Source: a bacterium (GTDB lineage Bacteria > Hinthialibacterota > Hinthialibacteria > Hinthialibacterales > Hinthialibacteraceae). Taken from it: a stretch of DNA of 64,000 nucleotides. Under the pieces are notes generated by a model. It worked only from the letters and a program-made list of their open reading frames with translations. It did not search any database and was not told where the DNA came from. How positions within the stretch are numbered: position 1 is the first letter of the stretch; every line of letters starts with the position of its first letter. The stretch is taken from assembly GCA_963662285.2 (NCBI GenBank), contig CAXXMV010000004.1, forward strand, positions 66,351 to 130,350, in the 5' to 3' direction. The position numbers were made by a program, and so were the translations under genes. This document shows positions 11,123-36,404 of the stretch, piece by piece.

Positions 11123-11971
11123 ATGATTGTTTACAAATGTTTGAAACCGTTGTTATGGTTGAGTTGTCTGCTTTTTGGATTGGTTGGAATAGGGTATTCT
11201 CAAGATTTTGGTCCGGTGGATACCAATACTTACGTAGTAAAGTTTATTGATCCAGCCGGCCCGATGCCTGAGATTGGCGGCGATTTCGATACGGGCTGGG
11301 CGGCTAATTTAAATGATGGAACAAACTGGTTGATTTATACCGATCCCGAAAACGATCAAGATCCAGTCAATGGTCCACGATCCGATGATATGCACTTTTA
11401 CGCCGGGATTGTTGATGGCGATACCCCCCGGTTATATGTCGGATTGATGGGAAACGGTTTCACGCCCGGCATCGCTGAGGGCGCGCCAACCGAAAATGAT
11501 GTGGTTGGATGGTGGGGCAGCGCTCTTTATGAGTTTCTTATTTTGCAGAATTACCCCGATGATCCACGCAACAAAATCGTTTTTGGAGCGGATGGCCATT
11601 ATGCGGATTATTTGAGAAATCCCAATGAACCGCCGGAAGTCCAAAATCTAACTAATGTGGAATTCAATGTCATTGCAGGCGACGATTTTTATGCGGTCGA
11701 GTTTGCCTTCGATTTGGACAGCATGGCTTTTATCGAACTTGACGATCCTGACGATACGGGTATCACCTGGCTGCGCGTCATAGCAAGTATTCAAGGAAGC
11801 GGCGCTCCATTGATCGTCTGGCCGGATGGTGATTTTAACGGTAATGTGAATTATATTACTCATGGATCAACCGGATGGGATCACATGGGTTGGTGGGATG
11901 TTACGACCGAGCGTAGTAATCCGGTCAGATTCGAAGCTGCAACGAGCGTTGATAGTTGGGAAATATTCTAA
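11123..11971 (+). CDS. secreted acidic protein, possibly CBM9/DOMON-like, with C-terminal VxxWxxF motif
   Basis: RBS aggagagg before ATG 11123; signal peptide; 'PEIGGDFDTGW' and 'YAVEFAF' recall a CBM9-like fold; ends ATSVDSWEIF. Confidence 0.6.
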   Translation: MIVYKCLKPLLWLSCLLFGLVGIGYSQDFGPVDTNTYVVKFIDPAGPMPEIGGDFDTGWAANLNDGTNWLIYTDPENDQDPVNGPRSDDMHFYAGIVDGDTPRLYVGLMGNGFTPGIAEGAPTENDVVGWWGSALYEFLILQNYPDDPRNKIVFGADGHYADYLRNPNEPPEVQNLTNVEFNVIAGDDFYAVEFAFDLDSMAFIELDDPDDTGITWLRVIASIQGSGAPLIVWPDGDFNGNVNYITHGSTGWDHMGWWDVTTERSNPVRFEAATSVDSWEIF

Positions 11972-12112
11972 GTAGAATTCAATCTATTGGTATGTGGTGG
12001 GCTAAGCGCTATGGAGTTTAGTCCACCATATATTAAACGATGGTACACGATATTAAACGATGGTACACGCTTTCGCTTTGTCCCATCATTGTTTTTGTTA
12101 GAAAATCATCTA

Positions 12113-13633
12113 TTAATAAAGACCAACTTGTTTTATTTCAGATTTACTTTCCACGATATTTATGGGGAATTCGCGGTAATTATTATTTACTGTCCAGCGG
12201 ATGCGATATTCGCCCGGGGCGGCGTCTGCTTTCCAGGGGTGAATTAGGTTGCTGGCGCCTGCGGGTTTTTCGGGGTTTCCCTGGCGGATAACGGCAATGC
12301 GTTTTTTCCCTTCTTTATCATAAAGTTCAATAGTGACATTCCCCTTAATGCGCGTTTGGCTGATGAGATTGGTTTGTTTGCCTTGTATGATGAAGCCGGG
12401 CATGGCGGCGGCCATGATTAAAGATGAATCGCTGTGATAGGGAACCTTGAGTTCGGTAACAGGCAGTGAGGCGTATTGTCGATCAAAGGATGCTGGTTCA
12501 GCTATGGAGATGTTTCCCAACTGGCGGACTTTGTTGCTGAAACCGGCCAGAGCGGTCCATAATTCACCAGCCAGTTCGGGGAACTCACCACCAGGGGCTT
12601 TGGTTATGGAGGGATGACCGAGTGCATCCATTTCAACGGCGTAGTTGGAGTTACGCCACTGGGGATTTTCTGAGTCTCCATTCCACATGACTTTGAGATT
12701 GGTGTTGATAATGCGTTCGATATCGGTCTGGTCGAAGGTGATGCCGGAGTGGAAGGCTTCGGCGATCTGGCTGATCTCACCGGATTGGTAATTGCGGTAG
12801 GGATGAACATTGACCCAGTGGCGCAGTTTGTTGGGGCTTGTGTCATCAATATCCCAGTCGCCGAAGGGTTCCCAATAGTTCCAGACGTAGTGGTCGCGAA
12901 AAATAGACATACGGCTTTTCATGTAATTAAATATCTTGAGCGCCTTGGTGCGGTAATTTTCTTCGCCGGTTATGCGGTAAAGGCGCAGCGCCGCCAGGGC
13001 CATAGTGTTTTGCTTATTGAAGGGCAGGGTGAGACTGGACTTTCCGACGGGCAGTGCACGCCAAGCGTCGAGATTGTCGGCGGTCATATATTGATCCCAA
13101 GATACGTAAGCGCCATACGGGCCGTCTTCACGCCAGGTCTGGCGTGAATCCCATTTTTCGAGCAGATGCTTTTTGGCTAATTGGATGTAGCGCTGAGCGT
13201 CTTCGCGGTACTTGTCAGACAGGGATGCATCTTGGCTTTTCATGATCAGTTCGGCGAATTCCAACATGGGATTGATGAGAATAGCGTCGCCGACATGCAC
13301 GTCGCAGATGTAGTTGCCGTCGTAAATGAAAGAACCCACCCAGCCTTTATAGCCATCAGGCGAGGTATAAAATTTTTGAATGAGAGCATTGTAATAAGTG
13401 ACGGCGGAGTCGAGGAAAGCGGCATCGGAGGTTTTGCGGTATTGATCGACGAAACGGGACATGTCATAGGCGGCGTGCCAGCAAAGTCCTTCGCCTGTAA
13501 GGTCGCCTTCCTGCTTGAGCATAGGGGTTCTCATGCGGCTTTGCAGCAGGCGCTCCGCATCGGTTTGGCAAAAGGCGCTCGCAAGGGGTAAAACGATTAA
13601 GAGTAATAAATATTGTATGGAATTTTTGGGCAT
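12113..13633 (-). CDS. secreted protein with a putative (alpha/alpha)-toroid glycosidase/lyase-like domain and C-terminal Ig-like domain
   Basis: Signal peptide; 'ALAALRLYRITGEENYRTKA' is typical of six-hairpin folds; C-terminal 'VTIELYDKEGK...APGEYRIR'; ends SEIKQVGLY. Confidence 0.55.
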   Translation of the reverse strand: MPKNSIQYLLLLIVLPLASAFCQTDAERLLQSRMRTPMLKQEGDLTGEGLCWHAAYDMSRFVDQYRKTSDAAFLDSAVTYYNALIQKFYTSPDGYKGWVGSFIYDGNYICDVHVGDAILINPMLEFAELIMKSQDASLSDKYREDAQRYIQLAKKHLLEKWDSRQTWREDGPYGAYVSWDQYMTADNLDAWRALPVGKSSLTLPFNKQNTMALAALRLYRITGEENYRTKALKIFNYMKSRMSIFRDHYVWNYWEPFGDWDIDDTSPNKLRHWVNVHPYRNYQSGEISQIAEAFHSGITFDQTDIERIINTNLKVMWNGDSENPQWRNSNYAVEMDALGHPSITKAPGGEFPELAGELWTALAGFSNKVRQLGNISIAEPASFDRQYASLPVTELKVPYHSDSSLIMAAAMPGFIIQGKQTNLISQTRIKGNVTIELYDKEGKKRIAVIRQGNPEKPAGASNLIHPWKADAAPGEYRIRWTVNNNYREFPINIVESKSEIKQVGLY

Positions 13634-13858
13634 AATTTAATCTCGCTTTATTCGGGATTGCCTATTATACCTGCTCCATTGGAATAACGCCAAGGCGCTT
13701 TAATACTTGTCCCCGAAATTGATGATGATCAAAGAGGAGTTCAACCATTTAGTTATGAGTGAACGAAAGAGAAGGCGGGAGGGTGTCTTCCGCCTTCTCT
13801 TGGTTTGTATTAGAAATAAGTGGTTTTGGTGGGTTGGTGAGGCGTGACCCACCCTACC

Positions 13859-14755
13859 TTACAGTAGGTTTTGGTATGCCAGCCATAGGCAGCGGAAGTA
13901 TTTCATTATCATTACCGGGTCGGGGCTGGTGTGGTGTAGTTCTGCGAGGCAGTATCCGTCGAAGCCGGTTTCGGTCAGTCTTTTTAAGAGATGGCGGTAG
14001 GGATAATTTTCATCGCATAGGTCGCGCATGTGGATTGAGAAGATTTTGTCTTTGACCAGGTTGAAATTATAATCGAAGCCTTCGCCTTCGAGGTCCTGTC
14101 CGTTGGAGTTCCAGCATACTCCGGCGTTGGGGTGATCGGCGGCGTCCATTATCTTTTTTATATTGGGTAATAAACAGGTTTCGCTGCCATGAACTTCCAG
14201 GCGGATCTGGATGCCGTAGTCTGCTCCGAAGGCGCCGACTTCGCGCAGCGATTTACCGATCTGCTCCAGGGTTTTTTCGCGGGGGACGTCTTTGGGGAAG
14301 CCGTTGGGGCGGACCTTTATGCCGGTGGCGCCGACATCGTGGGCCAGGATTATGTATTCTTTGGTATCTTCAATCTTTTTTCTTAACTCGCTCTGGTCGG
14401 CGGTGTGATAGTCGTAGGCGCTGCCGAGTCCCATTAATTCTACTGGTGAATCCTTGAAGCGTTTTTTGACTTCAGCGCGTTGTGGTTTGGTCAGGTTCAG
14501 TTCAACTTTATGGGCGTGGGTGGCGCGTAATTCAACTCCCTGAATTTTCGCCTGGGAGCAGGTATCGATTATGGTTTCGATATCCATGTCTTTAGCGAGG
14601 TTATAGGTGACAATGCCGACTTTCATCTTTGAAGGCTTGGAAAAAACGTCGCCCTTTTTTATTTTTTGCGAGGCTTGAGCCGATGCGCCCAGCAGTCCAA
14701 TGGTTCCCAGTGCGGCGCCAGTGCTCCCCAACATTTGTCTGCGATTCAGTTTCAT
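13859..14755 (-). CDS. Tat-exported sugar phosphate isomerase/epimerase (xylose isomerase-like TIM barrel)
   Basis: NRRQML signal; GVELR, RLEVHG, IHMRD. Confidence 0.85.
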   Translation of the reverse strand: MKLNRRQMLGSTGAALGTIGLLGASAQASQKIKKGDVFSKPSKMKVGIVTYNLAKDMDIETIIDTCSQAKIQGVELRATHAHKVELNLTKPQRAEVKKRFKDSPVELMGLGSAYDYHTADQSELRKKIEDTKEYIILAHDVGATGIKVRPNGFPKDVPREKTLEQIGKSLREVGAFGADYGIQIRLEVHGSETCLLPNIKKIMDAADHPNAGVCWNSNGQDLEGEGFDYNFNLVKDKIFSIHMRDLCDENYPYRHLLKRLTETGFDGYCLAELHHTSPDPVMIMKYFRCLWLAYQNLL

Positions 14756-14797
14756 AACGTTTCTCCTTGATAATCGTCAGTTGATTGAAGCGTTTGA

Positions 14798-14886
14798 TTC
14801 CTCCCCCAAGCCTGGGGGAGGTTAGGAGGGGGTTGTTTTGTCGAAACGCAACCCCCCTCTAACTCCCCCCAGGCTTGGGGGGAGAA
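14798..14886. repeat. long imperfect inverted repeat formed by two family D units
   Basis: ctcccccaagcctgggggaggttaggagggggttg ... caacccccctctaactccccccaggcttggggggag. Confidence 0.75.
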
Positions 14887-15030
14887 TACTATTATCAATA
14901 CTTTGTATCAAGCATAGTTTTTATATTAACACTTAATCTAGCTAAACAGTTATAAATAATTATCGTTAACGTGATCTGAGATTATTCTACATGAATTATC
15001 CCTAAATAATAAAGGGATGAGTGGTGATGA

Positions 15031-15891
15031 TTATGTAACCATTTCGAAGGGAATATTGCGGATAGCTATGGGCAGGGGGGATTGTTCGAGGGAAGGGAAG
15101 GCGTTCATGATTCCGTCGAAATGAGATAAGACTTGTTGATCCAAACTATTTGATTCATTTGATGAATTGTCTAACTCAGGCATTTCGTCTGGAAGTTCCA
15201 TGATTATGCTGCCTTCGCGGTATGGTTGGAAGATATAGCGCATAAAACGTTCTTTGCCTTCAATCACGCTTTTTTGCTGTAAGTTGACGGGAATTTCTAA
15301 TAGAAGGTCTTCATATAAATCAGGTCTTTCATTTCTGGCGCGGCGGTATTGCAGGAGGCAGACGCCGATTTGATGCTTCCTGTCATGGTCGTAGATGTAA
15401 ATTCGGCTGTCAGGATATTTTTTTAGAAACTGTTGCGCCGCGTTGGTATTAAATGCTATGGTCTTGATCCGTTCAGCGCCCAAGCGGCGGGATCGGGATA
15501 GTTTAATGAATAGCGTCCTGAGTAGTGGATAGGCGGTAATAGGAAATATAACGAATAGCGCTAAGGGGGCTAGATATGAAAACAGCAAGTTCTGGTGGTA
15601 GGAAAAGCGCAGCAGGAAGGCGATGGCGATGTGCAGCATGAAGAGTATGGCGACGATCTGTTTGATGTCCCACATTATTGTCCGGCGTATTGTTACATCC
15701 CATATCGTGCGCCGCAGTATTGCGAAAGATAAGGCGAACCAGACCAGCGCGGCGCCTACTTCGAGAATCCAGAGATATGGCGCTAATTCATGTAGGGTTC
15801 CGGTCATTGCGAGGAGGACCAATAACATGACCAGCATGATCTCGATGAAGGTGAAGGCGTGGTTATGGGGGGATGGTTTTAGTAGGATCAT
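15031..15891 (-). CDS. membrane protein with prepilin-like N-terminal motif
   Basis: HAFTFIEIMLVMLLVLL followed by about 3 more TM segments and a soluble C-terminal domain. Confidence 0.6.
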   Translation of the reverse strand: MILLKPSPHNHAFTFIEIMLVMLLVLLAMTGTLHELAPYLWILEVGAALVWFALSFAILRRTIWDVTIRRTIMWDIKQIVAILFMLHIAIAFLLRFSYHQNLLFSYLAPLALFVIFPITAYPLLRTLFIKLSRSRRLGAERIKTIAFNTNAAQQFLKKYPDSRIYIYDHDRKHQIGVCLLQYRRARNERPDLYEDLLLEIPVNLQQKSVIEGKERFMRYIFQPYREGSIIMELPDEMPELDNSSNESNSLDQQVLSHFDGIMNAFPSLEQSPLPIAIRNIPFEMVT

Positions 15892-16079
15892 GGTTTTTGT
15901 TTTTTGTTATTCGATGTATCTTTTTAAGTAAGAGTATTGTTATATTTCCCCTCACCCTAGCCCTCTCCCGGGGGGAGAGGGAATTTTGTTGTGCGACGTT
16001 TATTGTTTGAAATAGTATTATTATGAACTCATCTTCAAAACGAACGATGTTGTTGGTTGATAGTAACTCGGAATTGTGA

Positions 16080-17426
16080 TTAAGCACGGATATCAAGCCC
16101 GCGGGCGTTGATGGTTTTTTGATTATCATGAATTGGCTGTAGGGTCCGGGGGACTTCGCCGACATTCACTCCGATTGATTTGATATCGAATCCCTTGTCC
16201 TGCAATGACGATTTTAGCTCATCCAGGGCTGACTGGATGAATTGCTGAACCTCTGGATTGGTTACTACAATGTTAAGCGATATACGGGGATGATCCCATT
16301 GCATGGAGATGTGCATAGGGCCGAGGTTGGATAGATCAAGCCGTAAATCTATGGCGCCGTTTTTTTTCTTTTTATCCCTGGGAGTGTAGCGTAGTTCAAG
16401 TTGGCGCTCTTCTTTATTATCCATATATGGAATCTGGACGAAAACGGGGAATGCAGTTTCGCCGCTTTGCGGCGGAAGGTTGTGCATGGCTTGGGCGATT
16501 AGCGACTCGTGCAGAGTTTTAACATCTTGAAACAGGCTGGCGAATGCCGCTGCGTGGGGTGATAGATCGAAGAGCGGTTGCAGGGTTAGCAATAGCGAGA
16601 GCAGTTGTACGATGGATTCGCCGAAGGTTGTGATATCCATGCCTGGATTCTGCAAAAGAAGGGCTTCGGGAGAAGCCAGAGCGGCGCGGAGAAAATCTTC
16701 CAGTTCTTTTTCCTGCTCAGGATCAGTTTGATCGTGCATGGGAAGCATGGTCTGCCGCATGGCGCTATGAACTTCTCTAAGCCGCCGGCGTTGAGATGCA
16801 TCCAGAATGGCGTCGCCTTCATCATCAGAATCGGCATCCAATTTTTTTTCCAGAGTTTTTAGTTTAGTTAGAACGTTGTTGGTGGTTGTAGCGATTTCCG
16901 GTTTGGGCGCGAACATGTGGGTTAACATGGCAACGATGGGGGGGCTGGTGGCAATACCCCGGCTGAACAGAAATGATAAGGCCGCAATGTTGCCGCCCGA
17001 CAGTTGAGGTAAGAGATTAGCCAGGTCTTTTAAGGCGGTTTGATCCAGAGGGATTCCGGCTTGCAGGAATGCTTGAGCGAGTATCTGGGTATTGGAACCG
17101 CTGACGCCCAGGTTGGCCAGAACGGCGCCCAGGGAGCGTGAAGCCGCTGTGGATGCGGCGGATGTAGATGGATCAGCCGAACGCCCTTGTTGTTCAAGAA
17201 CCAGCTTGCCATCGACCAGCCGGGCCAGCACGGCGTCACCGGATTTCAGGTTGGCGCCTTGCATATCCAGGGTGAAAGAGCGGCCCTGGATCAGCAGCGC
17301 CATCTTACCACCGGTTGATTGGGCGAGAGTCCCCTGTTGCGGACCTTGCTTTAACAGAGCGGACAGCCCTGAATTGAGGGCCTGCTGAGTAATGATCTGC
17401 GCTTGTGATGCGATTGGATCAACCAT
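16080..17426 (-). CDS. FliK-like (hook-length control C-terminal domain) protein
   Basis: C-terminal IDLRLDLSNLGPMHISM...VQQFIQSALDELKSSLQDKGF...GLDIRA. Confidence 0.7.
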   Translation of the reverse strand: MVDPIASQAQIITQQALNSGLSALLKQGPQQGTLAQSTGGKMALLIQGRSFTLDMQGANLKSGDAVLARLVDGKLVLEQQGRSADPSTSAASTAASRSLGAVLANLGVSGSNTQILAQAFLQAGIPLDQTALKDLANLLPQLSGGNIAALSFLFSRGIATSPPIVAMLTHMFAPKPEIATTTNNVLTKLKTLEKKLDADSDDEGDAILDASQRRRLREVHSAMRQTMLPMHDQTDPEQEKELEDFLRAALASPEALLLQNPGMDITTFGESIVQLLSLLLTLQPLFDLSPHAAAFASLFQDVKTLHESLIAQAMHNLPPQSGETAFPVFVQIPYMDNKEERQLELRYTPRDKKKKNGAIDLRLDLSNLGPMHISMQWDHPRISLNIVVTNPEVQQFIQSALDELKSSLQDKGFDIKSIGVNVGEVPRTLQPIHDNQKTINARGLDIRA

Positions 17427-17542
17427 GATTTTAGTGACTCTCAGAAAACTCGGCGTTATAAACAGTTATTCTTTTATAATCCTCAGTCATTATCGTTATG
17501 ACCATATTATATTGTCGGACGGAATTTGGCGATGTTAACCGC

Positions 17543-17581
17543 AAAAAAAAAGTCCCCTTGAGCAAAACTCAGGGGGACTTT
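17543..17581 (-). terminator. intrinsic terminator
   Basis: A-run + gtccccttgag-caaaa-ctcagggggac downstream of the minus-strand gene. Confidence 0.75.
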
Positions 17582-17604
17582 GGATTATTCTGGTATGGAT
17601 TGGC

Positions 17605-18561: not shown

Positions 18562-18853
18562 GATACCAAACTCCTTATTTTATAAAAATTATTCATAACT
18601 AAAGTAATTATCAGAATCATGTTTATTTCAATATAATGGGTATTATTTATGGTAATGTAAAGAGGAAACAGGATTATAGATGTTGCTGCGTGTATGCCGG
18701 GAATGAAAGCCATTATTGAGACATTGATCCATGATTTAACCTTCATGTCATATTAAACGCATTAATATTAGCAGATTATTATGGGATGATGTTCTAGGGG
18801 CTAGAGTTATGGGCATGATGCGTCTAAAATTGCCTCTGAAATATAGTATCAGC

Positions 18854-18930
18854 CGGGGCGTAGCGCAGTCTGGTAGCGTACCTGAATGGGGTTCAGGTGG
18901 TCGATGGTTCGAATCCATTCGCCCCGACCA
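18854..18930 (+). tRNA. tRNA-Pro (GGG)
   Basis: cggggcg/cgccccg acceptor stem, anticodon arm cctga-atggggt-tcagg, T-loop ttcgaat, encoded CCA. Confidence 0.95.
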
Positions 18931-19085
18931 TTTCTAACTTTAACCTTCCCAGTGATTTACGGAAACGCTTAAACTCGACCATTTCACTCAATTACTCCTC
19001 AAAAATCCCAAATCGTGCAATTCATGCAATTTTCTTTCTAAGCGCCTGTAGAATTTAGAATTATGACATTCTTTTTGGGAGTATT

Positions 19086-19226: not shown

Positions 19227-19965
19227 TCAGACCTCCTGAGCTCACCCGTGGTTTGCGCGGGATTTTGTTAGGATACTGGTTGGAAGGATAATCATCCAGA
19301 GATTGAGGGAATCTCCAGTGCGTGAGGTAGTTAAAAAAATGCCGCAGACCTTATTGCCTTTATTCACATCAGGCGAAGGATTCATGTCCTAGTTGATCTC
19401 CTATCAAAAAAAAGATGGATCGGTATACTCCTTTCATGCCGGATTACCGGTTTTCAGTCATGGGGAAACCGACCTGAAAAGTTTCCGCATGTTCACCAGT
19501 CAGCTGACGGTCAGTGGAGTGTGCCGCCAAGTTGACATCGTTAGAGCCTTTGGCATCAGCGTCATCAGTATGAAGCGATGGGTCAAGAAATACCGCGAGG
19601 AAGGCCCGGAATTATTCTTCAAAACTCCGCACCGACTCAGCGAACAATTGCTCAATGCGATTAAAATGATCGTCTATCGGGCGGAGACGGCCATGGCGAT
19701 GATTGTGCGAACGCAATTGGCCCGAAGCGACGATGCCCGCTCATTGATCCGGGAAATATTAGCGGCGGATGCGGATATCATTCCGGATGAGGAAAACAAA
19801 ACCTTAACGGTGCAGTTGCACCATTTGACCAACCACCTATCGGATCAAGCCGCCCGCAACTTCGCAGCTAATCTCAACGCCGCAGAAACCATCTACCCCG
19901 GCGCGGACTTGCGACTAATCTACAAACTGGTATCGGATGAAATTCCACCAGATCAGGAAGTCTGA
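19227..19965 (+). mobile_element. internally deleted insertion sequence (transposase remnant with terminal inverted repeats)
   Basis: TIRs tcagacctcctga (19227-19239) and tcaggaagtctga (19953-19965); ORF 19393-19965 joins an HTH-like N-terminal part to a transposase-like C-terminal part (NAIKMIVYRAET...LTVQLHHL). Confidence 0.7.
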
Positions 19966-20047
19966 AATTATACTTGCATTCTCCACACCCTCACCCTGTA
20001 CTCCTCATTTCTAACTTTTTTTTATTCGATTTTTTGCCGGTGCATCA

Positions 20048-22081
20048 TTAATAGACGCGCCAGTTGGAAACGTTGGTAGTAATCGGACCCGTTAGTTTAT
20101 AGATCGTCCATTGCGAGGCGTCTAGCGTTTCTAATAAGATTAATAATGAATGTGAATCAGCGGGGAAAATGCCCTGAATTGTATATCCATCCACGGCTTG
20201 AGCGATATCAATAGGGCCGCTTGAGGTATACCAGGTTAAACGATCCGCGCTCGAAACGCTTTCATGAACTACAATGAATTCATCTTCACTGCAGGAAAGT
20301 ATATTATTGCCAAAAACTTTTATCTTCGTATTACCGGAAAACAATGGGATGGTTGAGAATCCATCCTGTAAAACTATAAGTTCACCCAAAATCGGTTTAA
20401 GCGCGGATCCCTGTAGTGGGTCGCCCCAATTCACGAAATCCGTTACCTTGTTTGCCTGGCTATCTGGATTGTATAAGTTAAGTTCGTCTAGCATTCCATA
20501 AACATCCCGGTTTATATCGTTTGGACCGGATGGATCCCCCCAATAATTGTGTTGAAAGTCAGCCACTTTTTGTGATTCCATGAATACGCCGAAATTAACA
20601 TTATTATAGATATCGCTTTGGTTTACATTGACTGTTCCCTGGGTTGATATAATGACTCCAGCATTTTTACATTCAGTAATTAGAAGGCTGTCACCGGTAA
20701 AAGAATGTTGCTCGACAATTTGAATCCCATTGACTTCTGAGTTTTTGATGGAGGAACGTAACATATCGGTACGACCCATTCCCAATAACACTAGGCTTAC
20801 TGATTGGTCGTTCGTAAATATGCAGTCTTGAATAGTCGTGGTTTCCGGCGTACTGGATTGCGATACCACGGAGGTGATATTGTTATCAAATCGACAGTTT
20901 TTAATCGTTGCGGAACGATCCAGATAGATTCCGTTACCGCACAAATAGATATTGCAATGATCGACAGGGATGGCGCTGTGCAGTTCCAAAACTCCATGAG
21001 TATTTTGACCTCCAGCCCCACAGCGGAAGACTGCATTTGTAACCGAGCCACTGCTTCCTTCATTGTATACAACATGCGACCATTGCATCCATTCCGCTTT
21101 TGTCTGGTCTCCATCACCATTTGTATCGCCCGCGATTTCGTCGTCTTGAAGCGAAGTGAAAACAATCTTTTCCGTATCGGAACCGTTTATATGCAGTTCG
21201 TCGTTTACAGCAATTCCAAAGACGGATTTAATTTGGATTCCAGGCTGAAAGACGACTCGCACATTATCATTGGTTTTATCCTCATCGCCAACGTTCAAAG
21301 ACCATGAGTTATAAAGAAGAATGCCGAGATTGGGGACGTCGCCCGATTGCGTGAAAGTTCCACTAACTTCTATGACGTCCCAGTGATTATTTTGCAGGGT
21401 CAGGTTGGTAAAAGTAGATGTGATAAGGTTATTGGGGTAGGCGGCCATAGAAATAGCGCTGTTGGTTTTGCAGTTTTCTATCGTACAATTGCTTATATGA
21501 CTGTTTGTTGTATCTCCAAATTGTATGCCGTGTCCGTAATTTTCTCGAAATTGTAAATTGTTTAATACTCCGTCACCGGCGAGATACACTCCGGACGTAG
21601 CGCTCAATTCAAAGATGGAATCCTCTACTGTGATGCTGCCCATATTGTAAATCATTCCCGGAACGAACTGTCCCCCTCCACCGTAGCGGAAGACGGCGTG
21701 GGTTATTGTCCCCTGGCTTCCGGGTTGGAATAACAAATAACTCCATTCACCCCTTTGAGGCGTATCGCCCTGTCCTTCGATTCGCTCACCAATCGTATCG
21801 TTCCAACTCGTGAAAATGACTGGATTGTCGCTAGATCCTTGGATGTTTAAAGTACCCTGTATTTCGAAACCAGTCATTTTTATTATGGCGCCTGCTTGAA
21901 TGGTCAACGTTTTCCCTTCAGGTACCAGAATCCCTCCATGATAGGTACCGGCAGTCAACGGTCCGCTGATTCCATCAGGATTGCCGTCATAAACGGCTCC
22001 ACCGATTGTTGTATAAGCGACGGCTTGTTGAGTGAAGAAAAAAAGGGCGAGTAATAAAAAAACCAGGAAGAAACGATTCAT
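20048..22081 (-). CDS. secreted right-handed parallel beta-helix protein with C-terminal VxxWxxY motif
   Basis: Signal peptide (AVA cleavage); repeated 'LNIQGSSDNPVIFTS' / 'INGSDTEKIVFTS'; NYWGDPSGP; ends TTNVSNWRVY. Confidence 0.8.
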   Translation of the reverse strand: MNRFFLVFLLLALFFFTQQAVAYTTIGGAVYDGNPDGISGPLTAGTYHGGILVPEGKTLTIQAGAIIKMTGFEIQGTLNIQGSSDNPVIFTSWNDTIGERIEGQGDTPQRGEWSYLLFQPGSQGTITHAVFRYGGGGQFVPGMIYNMGSITVEDSIFELSATSGVYLAGDGVLNNLQFRENYGHGIQFGDTTNSHISNCTIENCKTNSAISMAAYPNNLITSTFTNLTLQNNHWDVIEVSGTFTQSGDVPNLGILLYNSWSLNVGDEDKTNDNVRVVFQPGIQIKSVFGIAVNDELHINGSDTEKIVFTSLQDDEIAGDTNGDGDQTKAEWMQWSHVVYNEGSSGSVTNAVFRCGAGGQNTHGVLELHSAIPVDHCNIYLCGNGIYLDRSATIKNCRFDNNITSVVSQSSTPETTTIQDCIFTNDQSVSLVLLGMGRTDMLRSSIKNSEVNGIQIVEQHSFTGDSLLITECKNAGVIISTQGTVNVNQSDIYNNVNFGVFMESQKVADFQHNYWGDPSGPNDINRDVYGMLDELNLYNPDSQANKVTDFVNWGDPLQGSALKPILGELIVLQDGFSTIPLFSGNTKIKVFGNNILSCSEDEFIVVHESVSSADRLTWYTSSGPIDIAQAVDGYTIQGIFPADSHSLLILLETLDASQWTIYKLTGPITTNVSNWRVY

Positions 22082-23559: not shown

Positions 23560-23592
23560 GTGATCAATTCAAATCAATATCTTTAAGGAATC

Positions 23593-23628: not shown

Positions 23629-23656
23629 CGTGTTTCTTTGTATATAATAATTGTGT

Positions 23657-28642: not shown

Positions 28643-28965
28643 TTATTTAGTATCCATTCAACTAATAGGGAATTAACTTCTACACCCGTATAGAGTGATT
28701 AAAAGTCTTTTAAATATTTCGTTACCGTCTTATTACATATAATTGCCGCGATACGGTCATAGTAAAAACAGAATGTCAGTAAAATAGTATCTTATACTAA
28801 TCTTGATAAGATATATCTAACAGTCCAATTATTGCAAATATTTAACCTTTTCCCTCTTATAATAAGAGTGGCGGCGGCGGCCAGAATCGTTGGGGCTTAT
28901 ATCCTGTGATGCTATGATGAATAGCATCGTGTGAAGGAATCTCATCTGCTTGGGGTAATTGCATA

Positions 28966-31900
28966 ATGCGCGTCACTGGAACATATAGTCTCAGAAAATT
29001 TTGGATCACAGGCGTCTTGGCGTTTGTCATGGCGCTTCTCAATGCCTCCGTACTGTGCGCTGCAACGCCGCGTATCGGATTCCTGGCCGCTGAGCCATCG
29101 CTGGATGAAATGGGACCTCACAATCTAGCCGCCTGGCGGATTGCAACGGAGTTTGGACAGGCGACGCTTCTCCTAAGGCAGAAAGACGGCGCCTTTGCTG
29201 ATTCAGAAGGCCGTGCTCTCGATGCGAATGATTTCGACGTTCTCTGGTACCATCAGGGCGACGCTATTGAGCGCAACGCCATGTATTACGGGCCAAGCCT
29301 GAAAGAGATTCGCCAGTTTGCAGCGCAGGGCCGGGGCGTACTGCTCTCCGGCGGAGCACTGGCCATGGTCGCGCAACTTGGTCTCGAAGGGGTGATGCGT
29401 CCGCAGCGTCATGAACTGGGCAACTGGCGTGACCCGGCTGGCATGGTTCCGGTAGAGAAAAAGCATCCCGCTTTCCACGGCTTGCCGAACAGCGAAGACA
29501 TAATCTGGTTGAGCCAAGGGGGTTGTCCAGCCGTCGCTGATTTCTATTGGGGCGGCCCCGTAGAAGGCATGATTCTGGCTAAGACGCCCTCAGGGCCGGA
29601 AAATCCTCTCGTCGAATATAGATTGGGCCAAGGACGCATAATTGTTTTTGGATGGCGCTGGCCTGATTATGGTGATTCTGAAAATCCACATCGGGAGAAT
29701 CTGAACCGGCTGACATCAAACCTGTTGAACTATCTGGCCGATGCTCAGGCATGGCGTCCCTTCGTAATCCGCTCGGAGTATCCCCCCGTCGCCTCGCCGG
29801 ATGAACCGGGCGTCTCGCAACAACAATGGCGGGCGCTGCGCATGGCTATCGACGACCTCAGTGCGGATTTTCCTGAGCTCTACCGAAATGGCAAAGTCTA
29901 CCTGCAGCGCTTGCAAGCGCTAAAAACGCAAAATGACCGTCTCTCACCGGTTTCTGATCCAGCCGCCTATGCAACCATCGAAGAGCAGTTCGAAGCGTTG
30001 AAGAATGAAGCTCTGTTAGCCAACCCACTGCTGGACTTCGACCGACTGCTGATGATCCGGCGCCGCGCCGATCGATTGGGACTGCCGATGAATTTCAACA
30101 GCAATCCAGACATCGCGCCGACTGGTTACGATAACACGCTGGTCGCCCTCTCGCCTGTTCGTTTTGATGGAGCATTGGCGACCGTTTTCAGACCGGAAGG
30201 CGACCGATTTATCGGTGACGTCGATTTACACTATGATGCAGATCGCCTGTTGTTGTCGATCCCCGATCCCAACGGGCGATGGACTGTTGCCGAACTCCAG
30301 CTGGACAGCGGTCAACTGGCGCCGCTTCCCCTGATTGATGAACCGGACGTGCATAATTTCGATGCCTGCTATCTGCCCAACGGGCGCATCGTCTTCACTT
30401 CGACGGCGCCTTTCATCGGCGTTCCATGCGTGGGCGGCAGTTCGAAGGTGACGAATCTATACCTGCGCGAAGGTGAGGGACGCATCCGCCGCCTGACCAA
30501 CGACCAGGATCATAACTGGTGTCCTACAGTTCTTAATAATGGACGGATTCTCTATCAGCGCTGGGAGTACGCCGACATCGCGCACGCCTTCATGCGGTTG
30601 CTCTTTCACGCCAATCCGGACGGCAGCCGCCAGATGGAGTATTACGGCAGTAACTCGTTCTGGCCGACCGCCATGTTCTACGCCCGGCCTGTCCCTGATC
30701 ATCCAACGAAATTTGTCACTGTCGTGGGAGGTCATCACGACCTGCCCCGTCAGGGACAACTCGTCCTATTCGATCCGGCGCAGGGACGTCATGAGGCTGA
30801 TGGCGTTGTACAGCGCATCCCCGGTTTCGGCAAGAAGGTCGAGCCAGTTGTCCTGGATGGACTTGTCGGAGGCAGTTGGCCTCTGTTTCTGCATCCGTTC
30901 CCGCTCAGCCAGAAATATTTTCTCGTCTCGTGTCAACCAACCAAGACATCGCTGTGGGGCGTGTACCTGGTCGATGTGTTTGACAACTTCGTGTTGATCT
31001 ATGAGGAGCCGGGGCGGGCGATGCTCGAACCGATTCCGTTGCGTAAAACGCGCAGGCAACCTGTGTTGTCCGATATCGTTCAGCCGGATCAGAAGGAAGG
31101 GTCTGCGCTGCTGGTCGATGTCTATAGCGGGCCTGGATTGCGCGGGGTTCCGCGTGGAACCGTCAAGTCGCTGCGATTGATCAGTTATGAATTCACCTTC
31201 CACGGTTTCGGCGGTGAGCCGGACCGGGTTGGTTTCGATGGACCATGGGATGTCAGGCGCATCCTGGGGACGGTTCCGGTAGAGGAAGATGGGTCGGCTT
31301 TTTTCCGCGTCCCGGCTCTTACGCCAGTGTCAATCCAACCTTTGGATGAAGATGGCAAGGCGCTGGCTCTGATGCGGAGTTGGTTAACCGCCATGCCCGG
31401 CGAGGTAGTTTCGTGCGTCGGTTGTCACGAGTCGCAGAATACCACCCCGTCGGCTCAATCGCAGCCGCTCGCTGCATTGCGGGAACCCTCGCCGATTAAG
31501 CCTTGGTACGGCCCGCCGCGCGGCTTCTCATTCATCCGTGAGGTTCAGCCCGTGTTGGATGCCTACTGCATCCAATGTCATCATGGCCGTCCGCTGGAGA
31601 ATGGGCGAAAAACATTCGATCTAACCTCCCGGCCTGCGCAGCGCGTTCCGTCGGCTTTCCAGATGCACTTCACGCCGTCTTATATGGAGTTGCGTCGATT
31701 CCTCAACACTCCCACCCTGGAGAGCGACGCCCACATGTTGTCGCCCCGCGATTTCCATGCTGATACGAGCAAACTGATACAAATTCTGCGCGATGATCAT
31801 TACGGCGTTCAGTTGAACGCCGAGGCCTGGGATCGTCTCATTACCTGGATCGATCTGAACGCCCCCGCCCATGGGACATGGAAAGAGGTCGTCGGGCATA

Positions 31901-32946
31901 TCCCCGCCAAAGCCGCCCTGGCGTCGCCGGGCGCCGCGCGTCGCCGTGAACTGCATAATCGCTATGCCGGGATCGACGAAGATCCCGAGGCGGTCTATCC
32001 CGCCGCAATCCTGTCTGTGACAGGTCGCATCAACGCTGAACTTCCGCTGATCCCGGATTTCATAACTAGCGAATCCAAGCCCGCGTCGACTGGGCAACGA
32101 CATCAAAAAGGCATATCATTCCCCGAAATCATGAGCGTCACATTGGCCGATGACGTAACTATGCAACTGGCGCTAATTCCATCCGGTTCATTTGTGATGG
32201 GATCAGAGCAGGGTTATCCCAATGAACGCCCCGCCCATCCGGTCTCTATCGATAATCCCTTTTGGATGGGTCGCTTTGAGATAACCAACCGCCAGTACGC
32301 CTGTTTTGATCCCAGGCACGACAGTGGCTTGGAAACGGGCGAGCAGTATCAGTTCGGCGACTACGAGCGCGGTCATCATCTGCGGCGTCCCGAGCAACCC
32401 GTGGTGCGCGTCTCGTGGGATCAGGCGGTAGAGTTTTGCGATTGGCTGTCGCAGAAGACGGGCTATCGGTTCACCCTGCCTACCGAAGCGCAGTGGGAAT
32501 ACGCCTGCCGAAGCGGAGGGACGGATCCCCTCTGGTACGGCGCACTCGACGACGACTTCAGCCGTTGCGCGAACCTTTCAGACGCTACGCATTACACCGT
32601 AGACTATCCACACGTCCCGACCGCCCTGCCGCCCTGGCGACCCGCTGATATTCGCTTTAACGACGGCTGGCGCGTCTCAGCGCCCGTAGGCGCGTTTGAG
32701 CCTAATCCGTGGGGGCTATTTGATATGCATGGCAACGTCGCTGAGTGGACCAACTCGACTTATCGCCTGTATTCACTGTCGCTTAGCGACCACTCAGGCG
32801 ATCAAGCATCTCGCAAGACAGTACGCGGCGGCTCCTGGCTCGACCGCCCCCGCCGCGCCCGCTCTGCGTTTCGACTGCACTACGAACCATCGCAAGCCAT
32901 CCACGACGTCGGTTTCCGCGTAGTATGTGAGGATGCCACCCAGTAA
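28966..32946 (+). CDS. secreted multidomain protein: DUF4960-like, HzsA-like propeller, two CxxCH haem motifs, FGE-sulfatase domain
   Basis: DACYLPNGRIVFTST, LYQRWEY, LGTVPVEEDGSA, CVGCH and CIQCH, LPTEAQWEYACR, PNPWGLFDMHGNVAEW, GFRVV. Confidence 0.8.
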   Translation: MRVTGTYSLRKFWITGVLAFVMALLNASVLCAATPRIGFLAAEPSLDEMGPHNLAAWRIATEFGQATLLLRQKDGAFADSEGRALDANDFDVLWYHQGDAIERNAMYYGPSLKEIRQFAAQGRGVLLSGGALAMVAQLGLEGVMRPQRHELGNWRDPAGMVPVEKKHPAFHGLPNSEDIIWLSQGGCPAVADFYWGGPVEGMILAKTPSGPENPLVEYRLGQGRIIVFGWRWPDYGDSENPHRENLNRLTSNLLNYLADAQAWRPFVIRSEYPPVASPDEPGVSQQQWRALRMAIDDLSADFPELYRNGKVYLQRLQALKTQNDRLSPVSDPAAYATIEEQFEALKNEALLANPLLDFDRLLMIRRRADRLGLPMNFNSNPDIAPTGYDNTLVALSPVRFDGALATVFRPEGDRFIGDVDLHYDADRLLLSIPDPNGRWTVAELQLDSGQLAPLPLIDEPDVHNFDACYLPNGRIVFTSTAPFIGVPCVGGSSKVTNLYLREGEGRIRRLTNDQDHNWCPTVLNNGRILYQRWEYADIAHAFMRLLFHANPDGSRQMEYYGSNSFWPTAMFYARPVPDHPTKFVTVVGGHHDLPRQGQLVLFDPAQGRHEADGVVQRIPGFGKKVEPVVLDGLVGGSWPLFLHPFPLSQKYFLVSCQPTKTSLWGVYLVDVFDNFVLIYEEPGRAMLEPIPLRKTRRQPVLSDIVQPDQKEGSALLVDVYSGPGLRGVPRGTVKSLRLISYEFTFHGFGGEPDRVGFDGPWDVRRILGTVPVEEDGSAFFRVPALTPVSIQPLDEDGKALALMRSWLTAMPGEVVSCVGCHESQNTTPSAQSQPLAALREPSPIKPWYGPPRGFSFIREVQPVLDAYCIQCHHGRPLENGRKTFDLTSRPAQRVPSAFQMHFTPSYMELRRFLNTPTLESDAHMLSPRDFHADTSKLIQILRDDHYGVQLNAEAWDRLITWIDLNAPAHGTWKEVVGHIPAKAALASPGAARRRELHNRYAGIDEDPEAVYPAAILSVTGRINAELPLIPDFITSESKPASTGQRHQKGISFPEIMSVTLADDVTMQLALIPSGSFVMGSEQGYPNERPAHPVSIDNPFWMGRFEITNRQYACFDPRHDSGLETGEQYQFGDYERGHHLRRPEQPVVRVSWDQAVEFCDWLSQKTGYRFTLPTEAQWEYACRSGGTDPLWYGALDDDFSRCANLSDATHYTVDYPHVPTALPPWRPADIRFNDGWRVSAPVGAFEPNPWGLFDMHGNVAEWTNSTYRLYSLSLSDHSGDQASRKTVRGGSWLDRPRRARSAFRLHYEPSQAIHDVGFRVVCEDATQ

Positions 32947-33086
32947 TGTGGTGAGGTGATGCGTGTGATTAAAAATAATCGAATAACTTATTGTTAGTTT
33001 TTGGAATGAGCATTAAAACTGAAGCCGACCGACGAAATAGCGGCTGGACGAATGGGAGATGTAAATTGGATAAAATCAAGAAGACG

Positions 33087-34802
33087 ATGTTGTTTCTATG
33101 GGCGATTGCGTTGCTTTTGAGCGGCGCTCTGCATTGGGGATGGTGCGATACAGGTTCTGGCGCTAGTGATCTTCGTTACTATCGGCAAGTGGAGCAAGGC
33201 AAGCCGGTGTTGATCGAGTGCGATGTCGCCGTTTACGGGGACACGCCTGCCGGGATAACGGCTGCGATCCAAGCTGCGCGCATGGGTCAAAAGGCTGTGT
33301 TGCTGTCATTCAATCGGCACGTGGGAGGAGTAACCTCGAGTGGATTGACTGCTACTGATGTCGGGAATAAGGCTTCCATCGGAGGCATAGCGCTGGAATT
33401 CTACACCCGTATCGGTCAGATCAGTAATTTCCGTCCTTCGGAGGCCGAATCGCTTTTCCTGAAGATGCTCGATGAGGCGGGAGTGCAGGTTCTTTTCGAA
33501 CGCTGTCTGGAGTCAGTACAGATAAAGGACGCCCGATTGGCGTCTATAACCATGGAGACCGGAGAAACCATTAAAGCCGCGATGTTTATCGATGCCACAT
33601 ACGAGGGTGACCTGCTGGCGGCGGCCAATGTATCGTACTGCGTCGGCCGCGAGCCTGCCAGCGCTTATGGAGAATCTCTGGGCGGCCAATGGCAGAAAGT
33701 CTCGTGGAAGGACGTCTACCAGTTCTGTAGGCTTCCGCTGAGTCCCTACATGAAACCTGGAAAACCGGAAACAGGTCTGCTTCCTGAAATCTCCACTGAA
33801 CCGCCCGGTAAAGCGGGTGAAGGAGACTTCAAGGTACAGGCTTATAATTTCAGAATATTCCTTACAGACAAGACGGGGAAAATCCCTTTCCCCAAACCGT
33901 ATGGATATAATCCAGACCGCTATGCATTATTAGCCCGCTTTCTCAATGCTGATCCTGGCGTTCGATGGGTTCTTAATTATACGACGGCGCCCATGACCGA
34001 TGGTCCAGTTCAGTTACGGAACGGCGACTGTAACAACGCGGGTAGTTTTTCTACGGATTATGTCGGCGGCAATTACCGCTGGCCTGACGGAACCTATCAT
34101 CCGGGTTCTTTTGCGGAACTCCCTCCACCACGCCGCGGGGCGCCGATGTCCTTCCACGAATTATATGAATTGCGGGAGCGCATCTTTCAGGATCATGTTC
34201 AATATCATCAAGGACTTATGTATTTCCTGGCGAACGATTCCCAGGTTCCAGAAGCGTTGCGTGATAGAGTGAACCGCTTTGGACTCGATCCGCGCGAGTT
34301 TCAGGATACAGGATTCTGGCCTCATCAGCTTTATGTGCGGGAAGGTCGCCGTATGGTTTCCGGATACGTGATGACGCAAGCGAACTCTGAATCGAGAAGG
34401 AGCGTGAACGATTCCGTCGGACTGGCGGCATACGCGATGGATTCCCACTTCTGTCAGCGTGTCGTCGTGGAAGAAAACGGGATTACGACTGTGAGAAACG
34501 AGGGAGGTTTTGGACTCGGTTGTCCATCTCCCTATCCAGTTTCCTATCGGTCGATCATTCCAAAACGGGAGGAATGCTCAAATCTGCTTGTGCCGGTCTG
34601 TCTTTCCGCGTCGCACGCCGCCTATGGTTCGATCCGCATGGAGCCGGTTTTCATGATCCTAGGTCAGAGCGCCGGAACGGCTGCTGCGTTGGCGATTGAT
34701 GAGGGCGTTGCCGTGCAGGACCTTGCTTATGATAAATTGAAGGCGAAGCTGATTGAGGACGGGCAGCGTCTCGGAAAGAATTCGTCCGCCCCGTTGCGAT
34801 AG
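33087..34802 (+). CDS. FAD-dependent oxidoreductase (xanthan lyase-like family), exported
   Basis: DVAVYGDTPAGITAAIQAAR, FIDATYEGDL, LYVREGRRM, GSIRMEPVFM; start uncertain (ORF open from 32991). Confidence 0.85.
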   Translation: MLFLWAIALLLSGALHWGWCDTGSGASDLRYYRQVEQGKPVLIECDVAVYGDTPAGITAAIQAARMGQKAVLLSFNRHVGGVTSSGLTATDVGNKASIGGIALEFYTRIGQISNFRPSEAESLFLKMLDEAGVQVLFERCLESVQIKDARLASITMETGETIKAAMFIDATYEGDLLAAANVSYCVGREPASAYGESLGGQWQKVSWKDVYQFCRLPLSPYMKPGKPETGLLPEISTEPPGKAGEGDFKVQAYNFRIFLTDKTGKIPFPKPYGYNPDRYALLARFLNADPGVRWVLNYTTAPMTDGPVQLRNGDCNNAGSFSTDYVGGNYRWPDGTYHPGSFAELPPPRRGAPMSFHELYELRERIFQDHVQYHQGLMYFLANDSQVPEALRDRVNRFGLDPREFQDTGFWPHQLYVREGRRMVSGYVMTQANSESRRSVNDSVGLAAYAMDSHFCQRVVVEENGITTVRNEGGFGLGCPSPYPVSYRSIIPKREECSNLLVPVCLSASHAAYGSIRMEPVFMILGQSAGTAAALAIDEGVAVQDLAYDKLKAKLIEDGQRLGKNSSAPLR

Positions 34803-34943
34803 CGCTATGAGCCATCGCCAGCTATATATTACTTATTAATAAGTAATATGATTTTTTGCTAATACCGCCGTATCCATTATGAGTGAAATTATTATCATAG
34901 CAGAAAGGGGACATTTGAATTATAGAAATGAAAGGAGATCAAG

Positions 34944-36404
34944 ATGAAAAAGATTATTGTACTACTCAGTTTTCTATTATTAATCCCTCTGTTTTATTGC
35001 AGTACGTCAAATGCCAAAACCATTGGATTCTGGACGTTCGACAATATTGATATGGGAGCAGGGATCGATCAGAACGCAGGATTTCAGGATGCCAGCGCCA
35101 GCAATCTGACCGGTATATTGGGTTTGCCATTCAGCACGCCGGGATTCGCACAGGGGCCTTCTGGTGCAGCCATTGATTTCGCCTTATCACTGGATGGCGA
35201 AGCCGGATTGATCGTGGATGATTCAGATGCGGAACTACTCAATATTCTCGAACCGCCTATCACTATTGAAGCGTGGCTTAGGTCGGATGCATCCCAAGCA
35301 GGGCATATTGGAATCGTGAGTTATGGCGTCCCGGGAGGCCGTGACGGAGCTGGCGGCTGGAAACTGGGTTTAGTCGATGGCAATCTCATATTCACTACTT
35401 TTGGAGTAGTTGATGTGGTTTCTTCTGTTGCTTTTCCCTTTGATGGAGCATGGCATCATGTAGCGACGGTCTATTCCGATGCGGCTGGTCAAGTATTGTT
35501 CTATGTGGATGGTGAAGAGATGCAAGCGATCGATGAGAATCGCCCAATGCGGGATCCTTCCTCAAAAGAAATGAATATCGGACTTCAATATACATCCATT
35601 GGCCGTTTTGTGGGTGATATTGATCGTGTGCGAATTTCCAACGCGGCTTTGCAAAATGACGAATTAGACACGGATACCGCCGCGATAAAACCTCTGGGCG
35701 CAGGGACGCTGGCATTCTACGATTTCGACGAAATAAACGCCCCCTTTAACAGCCAGGGCGCCGAACCAACACGAACGGCGGTTTCCTTGGAAACATGGGT
35801 TGAGAATCATATCCCCCGCGTAAATGTGAATCTTCCGACTATTGAAGAATACAGTCCTAGCGGCGACGCCGGTGATATGTCTCTCTTGTTTGAAATGGAT
35901 ATGAACCAGCGCGCATTTGTATCTGATCCTGATGGTATTTTAGACTTCAGTGATGGAGACTGGACATTAGAAGCATGGGTCAGCACCGATTTGCCTGTCG
36001 ATGAACGGGAAGTGATACTCTATTACGGCTATTCCGGTCATGGGTATTCCTTATCGGTCAATGTGGACGGCACGCTTCAAATCACTACTCTTGGCATAGC
36101 CGATATGCCTTCAACGAATGCCATCGTGCCCTACTCTCTGGAATGGACTCATGTGGCTGTATCCCATATAGCAGGGGAATCCATCAACTACTTCATTAAT
36201 GGAGAGTTAATTGAATCCCGGGATTATACAAGCGGAACCATCCCCGCTGAGGGAGGAACTCTATACATCGGCGCGGAACCGGATGGCGGACTTCCATACT
36301 ATGGTTCCATCGACCGTATCCGAATCAGTGACGCAGCCTTATCTGCCGACGAACTGGATTCGATAGCTGGTACTGTCGACATATCATCTTGGTCACTGTA
36401 CTAA
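34944..36404 (+). CDS. secreted tandem LamG/concanavalin A-like domain protein with C-terminal IxxWxxY motif
   Basis: Two repeats of TxEAW...WxHVA...FYVDG/YFING...GxIDRxRIS; RBS aaggag; ends TVDISSWSLY. Confidence 0.85.
   Translation: MKKIIVLLSFLLLIPLFYCSTSNAKTIGFWTFDNIDMGAGIDQNAGFQDASASNLTGILGLPFSTPGFAQGPSGAAIDFALSLDGEAGLIVDDSDAELLNILEPPITIEAWLRSDASQAGHIGIVSYGVPGGRDGAGGWKLGLVDGNLIFTTFGVVDVVSSVAFPFDGAWHHVATVYSDAAGQVLFYVDGEEMQAIDENRPMRDPSSKEMNIGLQYTSIGRFVGDIDRVRISNAALQNDELDTDTAAIKPLGAGTLAFYDFDEINAPFNSQGAEPTRTAVSLETWVENHIPRVNVNLPTIEEYSPSGDAGDMSLLFEMDMNQRAFVSDPDGILDFSDGDWTLEAWVSTDLPVDEREVILYYGYSGHGYSLSVNVDGTLQITTLGIADMPSTNAIVPYSLEWTHVAVSHIAGESINYFINGELIESRDYTSGTIPAEGGTLYIGAEPDGGLPYYGSIDRIRISDAALSADELDSIAGTVDISSWSLY

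Follow-up and report, generated by a model that had tools for sequence, protein, structure and literature searches.

Exported proteins with a shared C-terminal end

The window analysed here is a stretch of 64,000 nucleotides (C4:66351-130350) from a genome of the phylum Hinthialibacterota, which comprises 7,286,025 bases in 8 contigs and is referred to as G000. Three non-homologous secreted proteins encoded in this window, termed carriers 1 to 3 (Table 1), end in the same short pattern, with a tryptophan four residues from the C-terminus and a tyrosine or phenylalanine as the final residue. This ending, here called the tag, had been noted in a sequence-only reading of the same DNA, and all three open reading frames (ORFs) and their endings proved to be as described there. 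Carrier 1 was matched by neither a Pfam nor an NCBIfam family. The remaining ORFs of the window do not end in this way, also in agreement with that reading; they include at least 12 with signal-peptide-like starts, among them those for GH92 and GH3 proteins, an FGE-type protein of 1341 amino acids, and an FAD oxidoreductase.

A proteome-wide search, as proposed in the sequence-only reading, showed that the tag is common in G000. All stop-to-stop frames of at least 100 amino acids (10,485) were reduced to a greedy non-overlapping set of 5180 ORFs, covering 88.5% of the genome; 5305 overlapping frames were rejected. The expression [VI]..W.[ILVM][YF]$ matched 100 of the 5180 kept ORFs and none of the rejected frames. 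The same seven-residue pattern occurs 82 times inside proteins, in 2,125,662 positions, so that only 0.2 C-terminal matches would be expected by chance. A looser expression matched 160 ORFs versus 7 rejected frames, with a shuffled-tail mean of 4.2. Tag-bearing ORFs, about 100-160 proteins, thus make up some 2-3% of the proteome.

The profile of the 100 tails contains information in the last nine residues only and gives the consensus T-x-V-x-[DNE]-W-[SEQ]-[LI]-[YF]-COOH. Counted from the C-terminus, threonine occupies position -9 in 69 tails, valine or isoleucine position -7 (83 and 17, respectively), and tyrosine or phenylalanine position -1 (77 and 23). Tryptophan stands at -4 and is flanked by mostly D, N, or E (also G, S, or Q) at -5 and by S, E, Q, or M (also A or D) at -3; position -2 holds L, I, M, or V. 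Upstream of these nine residues there is merely a weak bias towards proline, glycine, threonine, and acidic residues. The end position is strongly preferred, although not absolute: 100 ORFs stop exactly at Y/F.

A further secreted protein of the window, with the tail IKQVGLY, had been listed as a near-member of the group. This assignment was not upheld. The tail lacks the tryptophan and the orthologues are tag-free; 11 complete ORFs, from 11 further genomes belonging to the family, are untagged and shorter at the C-terminal end by about 12 residues. Among the G000 tails with T at -9, the tryptophan position is occupied by W in 69, F in 3, Y in 2, and V in none. On the evidence of the orthologue ends, the protein was rejected as a degenerate member. 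Its C-terminal extension of 12 residues (ESKSEIKQVGLY), absent from the orthologues in the 11 other genomes, is tag-like with V replacing W, and could be a nascent tag, a decayed tag, or a product of chance.

Table 1. Positions of the tag carriers, their tags, and other features considered in the text (window coordinates, except for the T2SS clusters, which are given by contig of G000).
Feature	Position	Strand	Description
Carrier 1	11123..11971	+	282 amino acids, exported; ORF open from 11009, signal peptide from 11123
Tag of carrier 1	11942-11968; stop 11969-11971	+	tail ATSVDSWEIF; tag TSVDSWEIF
Carrier 2	20048..22081	-	677 amino acids; signal peptide and beta-helix; Pfam Beta_helix 6.9e-19
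Tag of carrier 2	20051-20077; stop 20048-20050	-	tail TTNVSNWRVY; tag TNVSNWRVY
Carrier 3	34944..36404	+	486 amino acids; signal peptide and two LamG domains; Laminin_G_3 matched twice
Tag of carrier 3	last base 36401; stop 36402-36404	+	tag TVDISSWSLY
Protein with tail IKQVGLY	12113..13633	-	signal peptide; only weak Pfam matches to GH9/GH76
GspG-like pseudopilin gene	37214..37867	+	810 bp downstream of carrier 3, same strand; TIGR01710 4.4e-15, N_methyl, T2SSG
Pseudopilin-like gene	8633..9193	+	two genes upstream of carrier 1; N_methyl 1.1e-8, TIGR01710 1.4e-14
T2SS clusters	C1:554.9-566.8 kb; C6:877-890 kb; C7		three type II secretion system clusters

Carriers of the tag in G000

With leucine also allowed at -7, 105 carriers were identified in G000. 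Single-linkage clustering of their BLAST matches resulted in 56 clusters, 44 of which were singletons. Among the 73 carriers that were compared with Pfam, 32 contained no Pfam family. The others possess beta-helix, TIG/PD40, WD40, FG-GAP, CBM9, LamG, and LTD plus CotH domains, or belong to S8 and C1 peptidases, PBP/ANF-type binders, beta-lactamase-like proteins, GH42, an MtrC-like multihaem cytochrome, and a tyrosine phosphatase. The sequence-only reading had assumed that the cargo is specifically glycan-binding or glycan-degrading. This view is too narrow, since peptidases, propellers, a cytochrome, and a phosphatase are tagged as well and sulfatases are not.

The tag is enriched among proteins with signal peptides, in the comparison that this reading had proposed. 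One heuristic flagged 87 of the 105 carriers versus 38% of other ORFs, and a second flagged 82 versus 29% of all ORFs. Both predictors are crude; on visual inspection, a signal peptide is apparent in most carriers that were left unflagged. A lipobox-like motif was present in 4 of the 105 carriers and a twin-arginine motif in none. Two abundant and presumably periplasmic families of G000 are free of the tag, which was detected in 0 of 46 BLAST relatives in the sulfatase family and in 0 of 80 in the Gfo/Idh/MocA oxidoreductase family.

Tagged genes may also occur in series. Three small ones (approximately 150-290 amino acids) with the ends D-W-H-[LM]-[FY] lie in tandem in another genome (G060:C119:12915-16978), and a similar tandem pair is present on contig C6 of genome G020. 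The survey of genes located near tagged genes in G000 revealed, in addition, a five-member Hsp20/alpha-crystallin family (C8:308137-308694 and four paralogues; PF00011, 3e-20), four members of which lie no more than two genes away from a tagged one (p 1e-4). Such proximity is odd for a cytoplasmic chaperone and, given the small number of genes, may be due to chance.

Position of the tag relative to the fold and in homologues

The AlphaFold2 model of carrier 3 (40-row alignment) has a mean pLDDT (predicted local distance difference test) of 91.3. The final strand of the second LamG domain comprises residues 454-462; the mean pLDDT is 72 for residues 471-480 and below 50 for residues 481-486. 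This combination of a confident LamG model and a low-pLDDT end identifies the tag of carrier 3 as a free tail outside the fold. Accordingly, the tag is not an integral strand of the protein's own domain in this carrier, the one with a confident model. The model of carrier 1 (21-row alignment; mean pLDDT 45) was unusable for the tail.

The tag is well conserved among orthologues of carrier 1. Of 21 aligned sequences, 17 end in W-x-[LI]-[YF], two end in H, and two possess 2-3 extra residues. Among the best 120 homologues of the LamG protein, 32 end in the tag and nine in W-x-[LI]-[HQRKN]. The other large group, 72 of the 120, comprises proteins that are longer by about 75 residues (median 554 versus 479 amino acids) owing to a C-terminal extension ending in [FY][FY]R[LVAI]. 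Wherever their source is named, these extended homologues are from Verrucomicrobia; the extension comprises about 80-100 residues and ends in R-F-Y-R-L-[KR]-R-P. Since it is located in the same place, the tag sits where relatives bear another C-terminal module. This Verrucomicrobia extension may represent another, as yet unnamed, C-terminal sorting domain.

The best 150 relatives of carrier 2 in a representative library were mostly giant repeat proteins, only two of which end in the tag; this says little about conservation. Several beta-helix homologues of carrier 2 from other phyla have ends that, judged by eye and with no model behind the assignment, resemble the C-terminal domain (CTD) of type IX secretion system (T9SS) cargo.

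Distribution of the tag among genomes

At the DNA level, the pattern T-x-V-x-x-W-x-[LIMV]-[YF]-stop occurs at 58 sites in G000, with one site in the control. All 19 other genomes of the family contain 10-45 sites and the genomes from the rest of the phylum 1-18, with 0-3 in the controls. At least one match was therefore detected in each of the 35 Hinthialibacterota genomes, although the single match of one of them (G028) ends in TGG and lacks a stop codon.

When 185,579 species genomes were scanned for a stricter pattern, 95 stretches were returned, 80 of which underlie the following statements. Among the matches listed, the genomes with several matches were either of the type of the window's phylum or labelled Candidatus Sumerlaeota, and unrelated taxa had single, chance-like matches only. 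The names attached to tagged homologues and multi-match metagenome-assembled genomes of the window-phylum type were Candidatus Omnitrophota and Candidatus Hinthialibacteria OLB16. The genomes labelled Sumerlaeota contained 7-18 matches versus 0-1 in the controls.

The phylum bearing the latter label is a different and larger group. In a sample of 61 of its genomes, 13 had at least five matches, 39 had at least one, and 22 had none. Of 30 sites sampled in this second phylum, 27 proved to be genuine ORF ends showing the complete T-x-V-x-[DE]-W-x-L-[YF] pattern. The tag had been thought to be lineage-specific; its occurrence, albeit patchy, in a second phylum does not agree with this. In a third, small phylum, five matches were found in one of five genomes, one of them out of frame.

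Secretion machinery and pseudopilin genes

The G000 genome contains eight secretin matches, seven full-length ATPases of the GspE/PilB type, and three clusters of genes for a type II secretion system (T2SS), composed of E, F, H, I, J, K, L/M-like, and D genes. Only one of these clusters possesses its own canonical gspG; the other two do not. The PDZ-containing GspC was not found in the three clusters, where short HR/PilP-like proteins occur instead. An operon at C8:412-432 kb codes for two signal-peptide proteins, one of which contains a cohesin domain, as well as for a PilM-PilN fusion and a secretin of 1057 amino acids with an N-terminal array of tetratricopeptide repeats (TPR).

About 117 genes for GspG-like pseudopilins are dispersed singly in G000 beside genes for exported proteins. 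The mature proteins comprise 180-225 amino acids and share the motifs LTTP..Y..S.P.DPF, S.GPD, and SNG..S.GDI. The role of this expansion is unexplained. Directly beside such a gene, and always co-directional with it, are 17 of the 105 tagged genes; random sampling (500 draws) gave 4.6 on average and never more than 12. When only genes with signal-peptide-like starts are considered, 17 of 94 pilin neighbours bear the tag, versus 65 of 1315 other genes (odds ratio 4.2, p 1e-5). The pilin family was the most enriched among the neighbour families of tagged genes (22/104, p 2.4e-6), and several other pilin neighbours bear near-tags. Within 1.5 kb, a pilin gene is present for 13 of the 105 tagged genes versus 4.5 at random. 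Across the phylum, the same distance applies to 8 of 30 loci of the LamG family; the two closest orthologues of carrier 3 (L180 and L181) have no pilin gene downstream.

In the window, pseudopilin genes occur near carriers 1 and 3 (Table 1). The one near carrier 3 is among the approximately 117 dispersed paralogues, and any link of it with the tag is weak. When its pseudopilin head (residues 29-217 of the product of 37214-37867, 62-row alignment) was co-folded with the second LamG domain and the tag (residues 296-486, 40-row alignment), no answer was obtained (score 0.00), which speaks neither for nor against binding.

Two further ORFs of the window lie between xylose-isomerase-like genes with Tat signals. 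One (19393-19965, + strand) has a TTG start and encodes 190 amino acids; the other (16080-17426, - strand) encodes a protein of 448 amino acids without a signal peptide. No relation of either to the tag is evident.

Possible function of the tag

On balance, we consider it probable that the tag is a short linear sorting signal of Sec-exported proteins, acting through a putative reader in the cell envelope and serving outer-membrane passage, surface retention, or both. The carriers would enter the periplasm through Sec by means of a cleavable type-I signal peptide. The tail, itself unstructured, would be joined to the final folded domain by a short linker of proline, glycine, threonine, and acidic residues. 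A putative envelope component would bind it and so pick about 100-160 proteins from the larger pool with signal peptides, and binding would lead to passage, retention, or both, as with the T9SS CTD. Sorting or docking is the simplest account for a disordered end tail shared by that many unrelated Sec-exported proteins. It also fits the absence of the tag from abundant periplasmic families, its replacement of the sorting-type modules of homologues, and its retention across two phyla.

We lean towards outer-membrane passage, perhaps together with surface retention, because these folds must be picked from the periplasm by some signal and other exporters were not found. The likeliest route would be a secretin-based machine of the T2SS type, since such machines are the only outer-membrane protein exporters found in the genome. 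The MtrC-like carrier was counted in favour of this route; MtrC of Shewanella is exported by the T2SS. To our knowledge, only conformational signals have been recognized in secretin-type secretion. The more far-reaching proposal, that the tag is a transplantable linear export signal for folded periplasmic proteins in at least two candidate phyla, leading by way of a secretin-type (T2SS-like) channel or of an outer-membrane translocon not yet recognised, is rather doubtful.

Several observations weigh against a sorting signal of this kind or against its link to secretins. One extra residue follows the motif in 17 ORFs, each longer extension being found in 0-2, and 19 ORFs have a terminal H in place of Y/F, with Q, K, or N in a few more; recognition therefore seems not to depend strictly on a terminal aromatic carboxylate. 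The structural view of the tail is based on a single carrier, the LamG protein. The adjacency of pilin and tagged genes was not replicated elsewhere: considering the first six tag sites per genome in five genomes of each phylum, a pilin gene was located within 1.5 kb at 1 of 28 loci in the window's phylum and at 1 of 27 in the second phylum. In the latter phylum, 10-131 matches to the pilin N-terminal pattern were found per genome, including genomes without tags, and secretins were present in five of five tag-rich and five of five tag-free genomes. Because secretins and pilin expansions are equally present in tag-free genomes, the T2SS machinery is independent of the tag. The count of pilin patterns was also uncorrelated with that of tags (rho 0.08, p 0.56). 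Relatives of the cohesin-domain protein from the C8 operon were identified in 59 of the 61 genomes whatever their tag count. Thus, none of the three features, secretins, pilin counts, or the cohesin-domain protein, separates tag-rich from tag-free genomes, and no reader of the tag was found by these comparisons or by gene adjacency. In view of the unreplicated adjacency, the uncorrelated counts, and the ubiquity of secretins, the pilin link is to be regarded as a lead rather than a finding.

The most specific form of this lead is that GspG-like pseudopilins, or the pseudopilus built of them, read the tag and hand the cargo to the T2SS secretin, so that the tag would correspond, at the other end of the protein, to the N-terminal signals of TcpF and CofJ. 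The odds ratio of 4.2, the top rank of pilins among the neighbour families in G000, the 8 of 30 LamG-family loci, the near-tags of other pilin neighbours, and the two T2SS clusters without a gspG of their own all speak for this explanation. It is nonetheless unlikely, given that 88 of the 105 tagged genes have no adjacent pilin gene, that the closest LamG orthologues have none downstream, and that neither the adjacency nor the gene counts agree with it in other genomes. It is possible, but not probable, that the tag operates only after export. Export itself would then be signal-independent or conformational, and the tail would plug non-covalently into a surface receptor or scaffold, in the manner of a mini-dockerin or a donated strand, so that enzymes and binders stay attached to the cell. 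Such docking is consistent with the tag being a short linear motif that is disordered and borne on a linker, and with the cargo, in which modules of the binding or adhesin type (CBM9, LamG, LTD/CotH, FG-GAP, beta-helix, and propellers) predominate. The anchoring-type C-terminal domains borne by homologues elsewhere point in the same direction, and the last five residues are conserved on both faces, as would be expected for a peptide buried in a groove. However, a receptor was not found; the single cohesin-domain protein that was compared occurs regardless of tags. Docking also leaves unexplained how at least 56 unrelated folds are chosen for export.

The tag would be a processing or quality-control mark if a protease of the PDZ type or a carboxy-terminal peptidase in the periplasm recognised the C-terminus and thereby matured, activated, or turned over the carriers. 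The PDZ domains of DegS and Prc/Ctp classically bind C-termini that are aromatic or hydrophobic, and the variants with one extra residue or a final H could be precursors or tolerated ligands. This explanation is nevertheless very unlikely: it is hard to see why one such mark should be carried by about 2-3% of the proteome, at least 56 families, and two phyla, and no PDZ protein was found within the T2SS clusters, although a genome-wide inventory of PDZ proteins was not taken. Finally, the shared ends might have no common function and represent a structural end-cap or a chance or compositional convergence. With 100 matches against 0.2 expected, on unrelated folds, disordered outside the LamG fold, and conserved in orthologues and across phyla, this is scarcely credible. 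A sorting role thus remains our preferred reading.

Sortase signals, PEP-CTERM, and the T9SS CTD each represent a C-terminal label that led to a dedicated machine. The tag lacks the defining features of these known labels and occurs in two little-known phyla of polymer degraders. If it is indeed a sorting signal, it would predict the enzymes and binders that are placed on the cell surface or outside by these uncultured bacteria, offer a nine-residue handle for fishing out the reader, and may bear on how secretin-type systems choose unrelated folded cargo. If it should prove to be a linear export signal for a secretin-type system, it would be the first linear signal for that secretion class. 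The patchy second phylum, with 13 tag-rich and 22 tag-free genomes among the 61 sampled, provides a ready contrast for finding the reader.

Comparison with known sorting signals

The sequence-only reading had described the tag as lacking a transmembrane helix or basic tail and as far shorter than a T9SS CTD, and both points were confirmed. Comparison with curated sorting-signal models, which that reading had also suggested, gave no match. No such model was found in whole carriers (Pfam on 73 carriers, NCBIfam on the three window carriers), and in 13 isolated 40-residue tails, examined with E-values of up to 10, no model was common to two tails. The models of PEP-CTERM, LPXTG, and GlyGly-CTERM matched neither the window carriers nor the 13 tails. 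The T9SS CTD model TIGR04183 was not found in G000, in a search without a positive control. SprA (TIGR04189) was also not found in this genome, which is 92.5% complete; the 14 control genomes were equally matchless, so this search had no positive control either.

A literature search on the motif string retrieved nothing relevant, and no description of this tag was found in the literature searched, supplements excluded. The available part of PMC9324843 contains nothing on secretion systems, C-terminal signals, or sorting, and that of a study of Sumerlaeota genomics (PMC8092238) nothing on C-terminal features, the outer membrane, or pili.

TcpF and CofJ possess linear secretion signals at the N-terminus, to which the minor pilin at the tip of type IVb pili binds (PMC10120004, available part). 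These resemble the tag in being short, flexible, and terminal; the protein that bears them is folded in the periplasm and exits by way of a secretin. The pilin genes near tagged genes in G000 fit this comparison. The TcpF/CofJ signal, however, is N-terminal and has a single cargo and a known reader, whereas the tag is C-terminal and occurs on about 100 cargo proteins, with an adjacency that was not replicated.

A final Y or F with hydrophobic residues nearby is also characteristic of the beta-signal of outer-membrane proteins (OMPs) and of the YxF end sensed by DegS. The OMP beta-signal is formed by the last strand of the barrel; BamA/BamD recognise its aromatic C-terminal residue, and its hydrophobic residues alternate (-1, -3, and -5). 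In the tag, positions -3 and -5 are polar and the hydrophobic residues stand at -1, -2, -4, and -7, without alternation; its cargo has soluble beta-sandwich, beta-helix, or enzyme folds. The cargo of type I secretion systems differs in lacking an N-terminal signal peptide and in being exported straight from the cytoplasm, whereas most tag carriers (82-87 of 105) appear to possess one. The peroxisomal targeting signal 1 (-SKL-COOH, read by the TPR domain of PEX5) is similar in concept only, as a very short C-terminal label of unrelated folded proteins that cross a membrane. It is eukaryotic and differs in sequence and machinery, and a TPR reader has no support in the case of the tag.

The signals of the LPXTG/sortase, PEP-CTERM/exosortase, and GlyGly-CTERM/rhombosortase systems are followed by a transmembrane helix and a basic tail and are processed by a membrane transpeptidase or protease. 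Like the tag, they are short conserved C-terminal motifs found on exported proteins of many kinds; they are confined to particular lineages and occur there in numerous paralogues of a genome. A protein with the tag, in contrast, ends at the motif; in the absence of a transmembrane segment and a basic end, the tag is not a sortase-type signal. The T9SS CTD of Bacteroidota (TIGR04183/PF18962) is likewise a C-terminal label of many unrelated Sec-exported proteins and has no transmembrane segment. It marks surface or extracellular cargo, adopts an Ig-like fold of 70-100 residues, is read by PorV/SprA, and is removed by PorU. The tag differs from it in consisting of nine disordered residues, a tenth of that length, and in matching no CTD model. 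The C-terminal domain of the Verrucomicrobia LamG proteins occupies the exact position of the tag in homologous proteins; it differs in being a longer and probably folded module.

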